Below, piece by piece: positions 23,704-27,563 of a stretch of DNA of 64,000 nucleotides (position 1 is its first letter; each line of letters begins with the position of its first letter). The position numbers and the translations under genes were made by a program. The stretch is taken from sequence record OR757454.1; one strand, given 5' to 3'. Source of the DNA: Escherichia phage BYEP02. The notes under the pieces are model-generated. The model did not search any database. It saw nothing but the letters and a program-made list of their open reading frames with translations, and was not told where the DNA came from.

Positions 23704-24828
23704 ATGCAAGAACTTTTTAACAATTTAATGGAACTATGTAAGGATTCACAGCGTAAGTTTTTTTACTCAGATGATGTAAGTGCATCTGGAAGAACTTACA
23801 GAATTTTCTCATATAATTATGCATCTTATTCTGATTGGTTACTTCCAGACGCATTAGAATGTCGTGGAATTATGTTTGAAATGGATGGAGAAAAACCAGT
23901 AAGAATCGCTTCTCGTCCTATGGAAAAGTTTTTTAACTTGAACGAAAATCCATTCACGATGAATATCGATTTAAATGATGTTGATTACATTCTAACAAAA
24001 GAAGATGGGTCTTTGGTATCAACTTATTTAGATGGTGATGAAATTCTGTTCAAATCAAAGGGTTCAATCAAATCTGAACAGGCTTTAATGGCTAATGGAA
24101 TTTTGATGAACATTAATCATCACCAGTTGCGCGACAGACTTAAAGAATTAGCCGAAGATGGATTTACTGCTAACTTCGAATTCGTCGCTCCGATGAATAG
24201 AATCGTTCTTGCTTATCAAGAGATGAAAATCATTTTATTGAATGTTCGTGAAAACGAAACGGGTGAATACATTTCATATGATGATATTTATAAAGATGCT
24301 ATTCTTCGTCCGTATCTAGTTGAACGATTCGAAATCGATAGCCCTAAATGGGTAGAAGAAGCTAAAAATGCAGAAAACATCGAAGGCTATGTTGCTGTGA
24401 TGAAAGATGGTTCTCATTTTAAAATTAAGTCTGACTGGTACGTGTCTCTTCATAGTACAAAAAGTTCATTAGATAATCCAGAAAAATTGTTTAAGACTAT
24501 TATTGATGGTGCATCAGATGATCTTAAAGCAATGTATGCTGATGATGAATACTCGTATAGAAAAATTGAAGCATTTGAAACGACTTATCTGAAGTACTTA
24601 GACCGAGCTCTGTTTTTAGTTCTTGACTGTCACAATAAGCATTGCGGCAAAGATAGAAAGACTTATGCGATGGAAGCGCAAGGTGTTGCTAAAGGTGCTG
24701 GAATGGAACATCTGTTCGGTATCATCATGAGCCTCTACCAAGGGTATGATAGTCAAGAGAAGGTCATGTGCGAAATCGAACAGAATTTTTTGAAAAATTA
24801 TAAAAAATTTATCCCAGAAGGATACTAA
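23704..24828 (+). CDS. rnlA: RNA ligase 1
   Basis: 374 aa [24 protein letters not shown]... with TKEDG ligase motif. Confidence 0.9.
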
Positions 24829-24831
24829 GCT

Positions 24832-24885
24832 GTTTACAAGTCCCTCGTGTTGTGTTATAGTAGTCTTACTGACATAACATGAGGA
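24832..24885 (+). promoter_or_regulatory. 54-bp early promoter cassette (copy A), upstream of alc
   Basis: GTTTAC-18 bp-TATAGT then conserved leader; identical to 38973-39026. Confidence 0.5.
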
Positions 24886-24892
24886 CTTTATG

Positions 24893-25396
24893 ATGGATTT
24901 ACAACTTATTACTACTGAAATGGTCGTTGAAGCATATGGTGATACTACAGATGGGATTTCTGTATTCAAAGGAAATCGTCGAGTTGGATATATCACCGAT
25001 CTTAAGAAAGATTTAGCTAAGCAAGTCAAGCGGAAAACGACCATTAAAGAATATCGAAATCGTCGTCTTGAGCAAGCCCGTGATATGCTTCCTGATGCGG
25101 TTGAAGAGATGAAAGTCTTTTTAGAAAATCAACTCGCTAAGTATGATTGTGATGTGTTCATTAATCAGACTCAACCTAATGTTCATATCAATAATTGTAA
25201 ATGCTACATCATCGTTAATCCTTTGACGGGAAAACATCGCCTTGGAATCAGTAATCCAAATCGTAGCGCATCAGATATGGCAGAAGATGTTGAGGCATGC
25301 TTTAAAATTTCTAAATCTCCTGCTGAACATCATATTTTAATTAACGGTCTTTCTCAAGACGATATTGTAGAGGTTATTAAAACTTTATGCAATTAA
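24893..25396 (+). CDS. alc: Alc, inhibitor of host transcription on cytosine DNA
   Basis: 167 aa from MDLQLITTEMVVEAYGD...; position rnlA-alc. Confidence 0.8.
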   Translation: MDLQLITTEMVVEAYGDTTDGISVFKGNRRVGYITDLKKDLAKQVKRKTTIKEYRNRRLEQARDMLPDAVEEMKVFLENQLAKYDCDVFINQTQPNVHINNCKCYIIVNPLTGKHRLGISNPNRSASDMAEDVEACFKISKSPAEHHILINGLSQDDIVEVIKTLCN

Positions 25397-25740
25397 GTAA
25401 TACGACAACAGGTTTGCTATTAATTGTAATTGCATTAGGCGGAACTTCTTTAATTTTAAAAAATAAAATTGAAAGATTAGAAACGTCTGTTGTAGAAATT
25501 ACAAAAACGGCCAATGAAAACGCCTTAGCATTAAATAATTTGCGAATTCAGTATAATTATATTGATGCGATGAATAATAAAAATCGTGAGGCAATTGCTG
25601 CTATTGAGCGTGAAAATGAAAAACTGCGCAAAGACGCAAAGAAGGCGGATGTGGTGGCTCATAAGCCAGGATTGGTTGAAAAACAAATCAACAACTCCTT
25701 CAACAAGTTCGCAGAAGACATCCAGGACCTTTCTAAATGA
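25387..25740 (+). CDS. i-spanin (Rz equivalent, pseT.3-like)
   Basis: 117 aa, N-terminal TM helix GLLLIVIALGGTSLIL then charged coiled-coil-like region; T4 spanins map to pseT.3/pseT.2. Confidence 0.55.
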   Translation: MQLSNTTTGLLLIVIALGGTSLILKNKIERLETSVVEITKTANENALALNNLRIQYNYIDAMNNKNREAIAAIERENEKLRKDAKKADVVAHKPGLVEKQINNSFNKFAEDIQDLSK

Positions 25741-26113
25741 TTAGACTATCAGCAGTAATATTATCTATTGGTCTTCTAGTTGGTTGTTCGACAAAGCCTC
25801 TAGAAGTAAAGAAAGAAACAGTTCATCCTAATTGGCCTGTTCTATTGGTCTTCTAGTTGGTTGTTCGACAAAGCCTCTAGAAGTAAAGAAAGAAACAGTT
25901 CATCCTAATTGGCCTGTACAAATAAAGTCATATGATGAAGCTAAACTATCTTGGCAAGTTAAAGTTATTGATGGTAAAGCTTGGGTCGGTATGCCATTTG
26001 AAGATTCCCAGGAATTTCGTATTTGGCTTAATGATGTAAAACGATATGTACATGACCAAAAAACTATGATATGTTATTATCGTCAAGAGCTAAAAGAGGA
26101 TAAATGCAAATGA
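25737..26113 (+). CDS. o-spanin lipoprotein (Rz1 equivalent, pseT.2-like), frame broken by 77-bp duplication (25764-25917)
   Basis: MIRLSAVILSIGLLVGC|STKP... signal peptide with lipobox LVGC; ATG overlaps stop of i-spanin. Confidence 0.5.
25764..25917. repeat. 77-bp direct tandem duplication inside o-spanin ORF
   Basis: copies 25764-25840 and 25841-25917; identical. Confidence 0.9.
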
Positions 26114-26334
26114 TTTCATGGCATCAATTTGAACATCTCAAAGGATTGATTTATGAATCCGAGATGGCTGCAATGATTTATGGACGCCAGATTCAACGGT
26201 TAGAATCTTTACCTCCAACTAATGATGTTTTATTAGCTCAATCTCGGGCTAATCTTAAAAATGAATACCAAAATAAGTGGGGTAAAGCATCTAAAGACCT
26301 GCATGATTATATTCAATCATTGGTTGAGAAATAA
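26104..26334 (+). CDS. hypothetical early protein (76 aa)
   Basis: ORF track. Confidence 0.4.
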   Translation: MQMISWHQFEHLKGLIYESEMAAMIYGRQIQRLESLPPTNDVLLAQSRANLKNEYQNKWGKASKDLHDYIQSLVEK

Positions 26335-26337
26335 TAA

Positions 26338-26658
26338 ATGAAAACTCTGTTAGAACGTTATATTGAATGTTCAGACCGTTACATTGATGCATGTAATGGT
26401 GCAGTATATATGGATTTGGACCGTGGGGTAGTATTAAATGATGAAGACCCTGCGAAAGCTTTAGATGACGCTGGTAAAGCATTACGAAAAGAAGCAAAAG
26501 CCCGTGGGCTTGATATGTATCAGCTTAAAAATCACATGATAAAATTTATTTCATCTAATGTTCAGAGCAAATCGGTGAATCAATCAACAGCTGAATTATA
26601 TAAAGGTCGACGTGAGCATAATATTCGTATTCTTGAAGTTTTCTTAGGAATTAAATGA
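26338..26658 (+). CDS. hypothetical early protein (106 aa)
   Basis: ORF track. Confidence 0.4.
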
Positions 26659-27563
26659 TGAAAAAGATTATTTTGACTATTGGCTGTCCTGGTTCTGGTA
26701 AGAGTACTTGGGCTCGTGAATTTATTGCTAAGAATCCCGGGTTTTATAATATCAATCGTGATGATTATCGTCAATCCATCATGGGTCATGAAGAACGCGA
26801 CGAGTATAAGTATACCAAAAAGAAAGAAGGTATCGTAACTGGTATGCAGTTTGATACAGCTAAAAGTATTCTGTACGGTGGTGATTCTATTAAGGGAGTA
26901 ATCATTTCAGATACTAACTTGAATCCTGAACGTCGCCTAGCATGGGAAACTTTTGCCAAAGAATACGGCTGGAAAGTTGAACATAAAGTGTTTGATGTTC
27001 CTTGGACTGAATTGGTTAAACGTAACTCAAAACGCGGAACTAAAGCAGTACCAATTGATGTTTTACGCTCAATGTATAAAAGCATGCGGGAATATCTTGG
27101 TCTTCCGGTATATAAAGGGACTCCTGGTAAACCAAAAGCAGTTATTTTTGATGTTGATGGTACATTAGCAAAAATGAATGGTCGCGGTCCTTATGACCTT
27201 GAAAAATGTGATACCGATATTATTAATCCCATGGTTGTTGAACTGTCCAAGATGTACGATAAGCAAGGGTATCAAATCGTAGTCGTTTCAGGTCGTGAAA
27301 GTGGAACTAAAGAAGACCCAACGAAATATTATCGTATGACCCGTAAATGGGTTGAGGACATTGCTGGCGTTCCATTAGTTATGCAATGTCAGCGCGAACA
27401 AGGCGATACTCGTAAAGATGATGTAGTTAAAGAAGAAATTTTCTGGAAACACATCGCACCACATTTTGATGTGAAATTAGCTATTGATGACCGAACTCAA
27501 GCAGTTGAAATGTGGCGCCGCATCGGTGTTGAATGCTGGCAAGTTGACTCGGGAGATTTTTAA
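26658..27563 (+). CDS. pseT: polynucleotide 5'-kinase / 3'-phosphatase
   Basis: 301 aa [22 protein letters not shown]... P-loop plus HAD motif VIFDVDGTL. Confidence 0.9.

Follow-up and report, generated by a model that had tools for sequence, protein, structure and literature searches.

Does Escherichia phage BYEP02 carry a complete RNA repair module of the phage T4 type? The question is raised by positions 23704–27563 of a 64,000-nucleotide (nt) stretch of its DNA (sequence record OR757454.1; the whole stretch is called the window here), for which an earlier note had listed the genes for RNA ligase 1 (rnlA), polynucleotide kinase/phosphatase (pseT) and, at 52747–53828, RNA ligase 2 (rnlB) as a complete set whose products together repair tRNA cleaved by host anticodon nucleases. 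The gene identities are sound; the three genes are orthologues of T4 gene 63, pseT and gene 24.1, respectively, as judged by both structure and Pfam matches, and rnlA and pseT are intact open reading frames (ORFs) where the note had placed them. The set is not complete in the sequence as recorded, however, for rnlB is split there by a 77-nt tandem duplication. It is very probable that all three are standard T4 RNA repair genes, that the break in rnlB is an untrimmed contig overlap, and that the recorded sequence is chimeric. The window has the sequence of a Tequatrovirus, a coliphage of the T4 type, and is collinear with Escherichia phage slur03 and 98.6–99% identical to it in the two regions compared (rnlA–pseT and rnlB).

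The rnlA gene runs from an ATG at 23704 to a stop that ends at 24828, spans a whole number of codons, and encodes a protein that begins MQELFNN in the ORF listing. This protein differs at only 6 of 374 residues from the T4 Rnl1 of structure 2c5u (E = 3.8e-252) and matches the Pfam families RNA_lig_T4_1 (PF09511) and T4_Rnl1_C (PF20819; residues 253–374, E = 1.1e-39). Its ligase motif I, ILTKEDG at residues 96–102, retains K99, D101 and G102, and R54, K75, F77, K119, E159, E227, G228, K240 and K242 are also kept; this list of essential residues follows the Shuman laboratory's mutagenesis of the T4 enzyme. The pseT product differs from the T4 Pnkp of structure 1ltq at 9 of 301 residues (E = 2.7e-204), and its matches to AAA_33 (PF13671, residues 6–149) and HAD_PNKP (PF25109, E = 1.9e-58) correspond to an N-terminal kinase with the P-loop GCPGSGKS and residues K15, S16, D35, R38 and R126, and a C-terminal DxDGT phosphatase with the motif FDVDGTL and residues D165, D167, R176, R213, D254 and D278, residues known to be essential from mutagenesis of T4 Pnkp. 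The earlier note had proposed KxDG, P-loop and DxDGT motifs as a check and loss of the catalytic lysines on alignment as the sign that it was wrong. The P-loop and DVDGT are present in Pnkp, and both lysines are retained (Rnl1 K99 and Rnl2 K35); the KxDG pattern is found in Rnl1 (K99-E-D-G) but not in Rnl2, whose motif I is K35-I-H-G, the same as in T4. In all, 36 of the 36 functionally important residues checked are conserved across Rnl1, Pnkp and the rebuilt Rnl2 described below, and neither rnlA nor pseT is touched by a 77-nt duplication.

The rnlB span is 1082 nt long (1082 mod 3 = 2) and is read as two ORFs in different frames, both of which hold a shared IIERDK(A/V) stretch (Table 1). 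As written, therefore, K35, motifs III, IIIa, IV and V and the C-terminal domain of Rnl2 are not on one polypeptide, and the downstream fragment enters the PF09414 profile only at position 20 before it goes on to match PF18043. The frame is broken by the 77-nt duplication, whose two copies have six mismatches between them, five of which are synonymous when read from the two copies. Deletion of either copy restores a 334-amino-acid (aa) Rnl2, and the two versions so obtained differ only at residue 50, which is V or A. The rebuilt protein has 14 substitutions relative to the T4 Rnl2 of structure 2hvq (E = 2.8e-217) and keeps 13 of 13 residues checked (E34, K35, H37, R55, E99, F119, D120, E204, K225, K227, R266, D292 and E296), and apart from the duplication the two halves show no further damage. 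Among the top-listed phage records none has the rnlB duplication, each being matched in two pieces and 77 nt shorter than the query.

The duplication in rnlB is one of 31 tandem duplications in the window, all of exactly 77 nt and without a spacer (found with Tandem Repeats Finder and a scan of our own). The first copies start at 4325, 6478, 7526, 7764, 9117, 10150, 14691, 15229, 17610, 20013, 21571, 25764, 28329, 31795, 33274, 36846, 37839, 38077, 42273, 43883, 47462, 47999, 48357, 48666, 50403, 51799, 52873, 54240, 59889, 62751 and 63311, and the second copies 77 nt further on. No duplications of other periods between 40 and 200 were found in the window, and no 77-nt duplications across the 67 kb of slur03 homologous to it. 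At 31 of 31 junctions slur03 has a single copy, and in its coordinates the BLAST alignments on either side of a junction share about 77 nt (76–82). Twenty-seven of the duplications lie wholly within genes, and every one of them shifts the reading frame, 77 mod 3 being 2. The tail-fibre and other structural genes hit are gp37, gp35, gp34 (twice), gp29, gp27, gp24, gp20 and gp18 (twice); the others are gp32, frd, nrdA (twice), the o-spanin gene, alt (three times), uvsW (twice), inh, hoc, rnlB, homologues of the slur03 hypothetical genes gp062, gp071 and gp075, and a short "DNA helicase" ORF just upstream of uvsW. The tail-fibre, sheath, portal, capsid-vertex, baseplate-hub and ssDNA-binding genes of T4 are needed for plaque formation, and no viable phage would be expected with frameshifts in so many structural and replication genes at once. 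Removal of one copy at each site gives a sequence of 61,613 nt, in which the longest stop-to-stop ORF, 591 aa as written, is replaced by ORFs of 1293, 1020 and 756 aa.

The value 77 is the largest default k-mer of the SPAdes assembler for reads of about 150 nt. In phage assemblies SPAdes has been described as giving contigs that share identical ends of 77 bp (PMC9409062), and the duplications resemble such ends in their fixed length of 77 nt, their tandem arrangement, their absence from relatives and the exact identity of the copies in 18 of the 31. They are almost certainly untrimmed k = 77 contig overlaps, which would have arisen if the contigs of a SPAdes-type de Bruijn assembly with k = 77 were strung together and their shared ends not cut off; the exact assembly process is one that we infer. 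They differ from plain SPAdes contig ends in that the copies of the remaining 13 have 1–6 mismatches, and in that the downstream copy is nearly always the slur03 allele, something not expected of graph overlaps alone. Three observations stand against this reading. Overlaps that come purely from a de Bruijn graph ought to match exactly, and the inexact copies therefore call for a further step (reference fill, polishing or a mixed population); a 36-mer across the rnlB junction has no exact match in the viral, metagenome or genome collections of contigs; and no recorded called gene product corresponds to the 68-aa fragment of rnlB. Even so, we conclude with high confidence that the split in rnlB is an assembly artefact and not biology.

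Were the 77-nt duplication in rnlB real, the gene would be a natural pseudogene and only the Pnkp and Rnl1 pair would be kept. The gene as written is indeed split after codon 68, so that Lys35 is parted from motifs III–V, and we reason that its loss might be tolerated, Rnl2 having no known biological role (PMC3884662). Set against this, the same event has taken place 31 times, at one length and no other, and in genes without which the genome would be non-viable; both halves of rnlB are otherwise undamaged; and the two copies in rnlB are alleles of different phage lineages (see below), a pair that could not be expected from duplication inside a single genome. We therefore consider a real duplication extremely improbable, and put the same very small weight on its consequence, that the phage either lacks a functional RNA ligase 2 or makes it in two pieces with the adenylylation-site fragment separate; if it were true, nature would have done in this phage an experiment on what Rnl2, whose role is unknown, is for. 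We also reject a split-gene arrangement and programmed frameshifting for rnlB, because the 77-nt event, 31 in total, hits essential genes as well. The preferred explanation of the break thus remains an untrimmed contig overlap.

The two copies in rnlB also bear on the origin of the sequence as a whole. The 203 nt of rnlB up to the junction are like those of Salmonella phage SG1, with 3 mismatches to SG1 and 13 to slur03; beyond the junction all 879 nt agree with slur03, and 64 of them differ from SG1. The copies are thus different natural alleles, one SG1-type and one slur03-type, indicating that the sequence is chimeric as well as duplicated. The segment that begins with the second copy, 52950–54316, is 100% identical to slur03/08/14, and the same pattern recurs along the window. 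The second copy is the slur03 allele at 29 of 31 junctions, all 32 segments start base-for-base as slur03 does (the first mismatch comes after a median of 460 nt), and four segments match slur03 at 100% over their entire length; examples of slur03-identical stretches, in addition to the one just given, are 1–4373, 6555–7840 and 25841–28015. The tails of the segments are 2–3% divergent, with the median last mismatch 95 nt from the end, and of the 28 segments with any mismatch, 24 show this asymmetry of identical head and divergent tail in the same direction. Slur03-identical heads make up 39% of the window, about 25 kb. For the divergent tails a search of 50,697 phage records gave no match at 100%, and the best matches found for a second parent, Salmonella phage F13076 (98.0%, 22800–25763) and phage G50 (99.0%, 55100–59888), are not closer than this, so a simple chimera of two known genomes is ruled out. 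The sequence combines one genotype identical to slur03 with another that is 2–3% divergent from slur03.

Two processes could have given this sawtooth. The contig gaps of a new strain may have been filled from a slur03-like reference, each fill starting 77 nt too early, or the sequence may be a directional walk through the k = 77 graph of a mixed population. Both fit the sawtooth, and either would also explain the 13 imperfect duplications.

It follows that the three RNA repair genes might all be real and yet come from at least two phage genotypes, in a mixed sample or by way of a reference genome, in which case the module as recorded would not have been seen whole in one genome; we give this about an even chance. 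The pseT gene (0 of 909 nt different, 100% identical) and nt 127–1005 of rnlB lie in slur03-identical stretches, and rnlA (32 of 1125 nt different, 97.2% identical, with 2 aa differences) and the SG1-like nt 1–203 of rnlB lie in divergent stretches, so that rnlA, pseT and rnlB may not derive from one genome; the sawtooth itself and the lack of an exact match for the divergent tails point the same way. On the other side, T4-like phages are naturally mosaic, which could account for part of the pattern, and there are about 495 phage records in which coverage of the rnlA–pseT query and of the rnlB query is at least 80% each, so any Tequatrovirus parent is expected to carry all three genes. The biological conclusion, that these are standard T4 RNA repair genes, is for that reason unaffected by the chimerism. 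The practical point is one of data quality, as 31 spurious duplications frameshift 27 gene sites and at least two genotypes are mixed; any other result from the window that depends on split or frameshifted genes, pseudogenes, tandem repeats or short novel ORFs needs a second look on the 61,613-nt de-duplicated sequence.

Table 1. Coordinates in the window of the RNA repair genes, of the duplication in rnlB and of genes between rnlA and pseT
Feature	Position	Strand	Remarks
rnlA (T4 gene 63), RNA ligase 1 / tail-fibre attachment catalyst	23704–24828	+	374 aa, intact
alc, inhibitor of host transcription	24890–25396	+	PHROG 1253, E = 3.5e-82; slur03 annotation
Rz-like i-spanin gene	25387–25740	+	PHROG 739, E = 3.2e-37; slur03 annotation
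Rz1-like o-spanin gene	25737–26113	+	frameshifted as written by 77-nt duplication 25764–25840 / 25841–25917
pseT, polynucleotide 5'-kinase / 3'-phosphatase (Pnkp)	26655–27563	+	302 aa, intact
rnlB 5' fragment	52747–52953	+	68 aa, then stop; motif I E34-K35-I-H37-G, R55; PF09414 residues 29–61
rnlB 3' fragment	52950–53828	+	292 aa, TTG start; motifs III–V and C-terminal domain, without Lys35
rnlB duplication, copy 1	52873–52949	+	end of upstream segment; 0 mismatches to SG1, 6 to slur03
rnlB duplication, copy 2	52950–53026	+	start of downstream segment; 0 mismatches to slur03, 6 to SG1

The 3.9 kb at 23704–27563 do not form one module, as the earlier note had them. Between rnlA and pseT lie alc, the i-spanin and o-spanin genes and two genes of unknown function, all outside RNA repair, and upstream of rnlA are a GIY-YIG endonuclease gene and nrdB; the gene order (nrdB, GIY-YIG endonuclease, rnlA, alc, two spanins, two unknowns, pseT) is the same as in slur03. 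The translation of the o-spanin gene as written runs into stops, and its duplication copies are 100% identical; with one copy removed it encodes a 99-aa protein with a lipobox-like LLVGCS (PHROG 812, E = 4.7e-43). Directly upstream of alc, at 24832–24885, is one copy of a 54-nt perfect repeat, GTTTACAAGTCCCTCGTGTTGTGTTATAGTAGTCTTACTGACATAACATGAGGA, and the other, at 38973–39026, is upstream of a gene that lies downstream of alt. The copy at 24832–24885 has a sigma-70 promoter-like score of 10/12 with an extended –10 (TTTACA, 17 nt, TGxTATAGT), and the leader that follows ends in a GAGGA ribosome-binding site, so that the repeat looks like a duplicated T4-type early promoter and leader.

The rnlB gene, too, is placed as in slur03: it follows hoc and is a neighbour of the gene for the capsid vertex protein. 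The hoc gene (50672–52167) contains a natural 288-nt tandem repeat at 50951–51529 with about 80% identity, whose product seems to be a series of Ig-like domains. The gene is only about 89–91% identical to slur03, far below the rest of the window; its length is 1413 nt in its best-matching relative SG1 and 1995 nt in slur03, and in the window the 77-nt duplication at 51799–51952 puts it out of frame as well.

Elsewhere in the window about 519 nt are deleted relative to slur03 at ~28293–28295, with loss of slur03 gp061 (a hypothetical protein gene, slur03 38317–38844), and about 155 nt at ~30977–30980 (near slur03 41445–41601); both look like ordinary indels between T4-like phages. No tRNA genes were found in the window, and no Rfam family reached its gathering threshold there, so group I introns were not detected. 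Introns in td and nrdB are known from T4; none of that kind turned up here, and the nrdB ORF (22044–23213) is uninterrupted.

In T4, and in T4 only, Pnkp and Rnl1 are known to repair tRNA-Lys cut by the E. coli anticodon nuclease PrrC and to be needed for growth on prr+ hosts (PMC3400036, PMC3884662), and both members of this pair are encoded in the window. In this pathway the C-terminal DxDGT phosphatase of Pnkp removes the phosphate on the 3' side, its N-terminal P-loop kinase phosphorylates the 5'-OH, and Rnl1, adenylylated on Lys99, reseals the tRNA loop (PMC3400036). Rnl2 seals nicks in duplex RNA through Lys35; its biological role in infection is unknown and it is no established member of tRNA repair (PMC3884662), and among the papers from 2019 onward that a search found, no title or abstract opening gives it one. 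The statement that all three enzymes act together on cleaved tRNA thus stands for Pnkp and Rnl1 against PrrC and not for Rnl2. From the orthology we infer that the Pnkp and Rnl1 of the window have the same enzyme activities and the same role in counter-defence; as such repair is a classic T4 counter-defence, this is little biological news.

Compared with T4, then, the rebuilt rnlB (gene 24.1) product is near-identical and keeps its catalytic residues, and only as written does the gene differ, by its division into two ORFs. The unequal nucleotide relatedness of rnlA and pseT to slur03 reflects the chimeric sequence. The proteins of the Pnkp and Rnl1 pathway are orthologues of their T4 counterparts with the few substitutions given above and conserved catalytic residues, and no functional difference from the T4 pathway is predicted; the RNA repair genes are ordinary, already known T4 biology.

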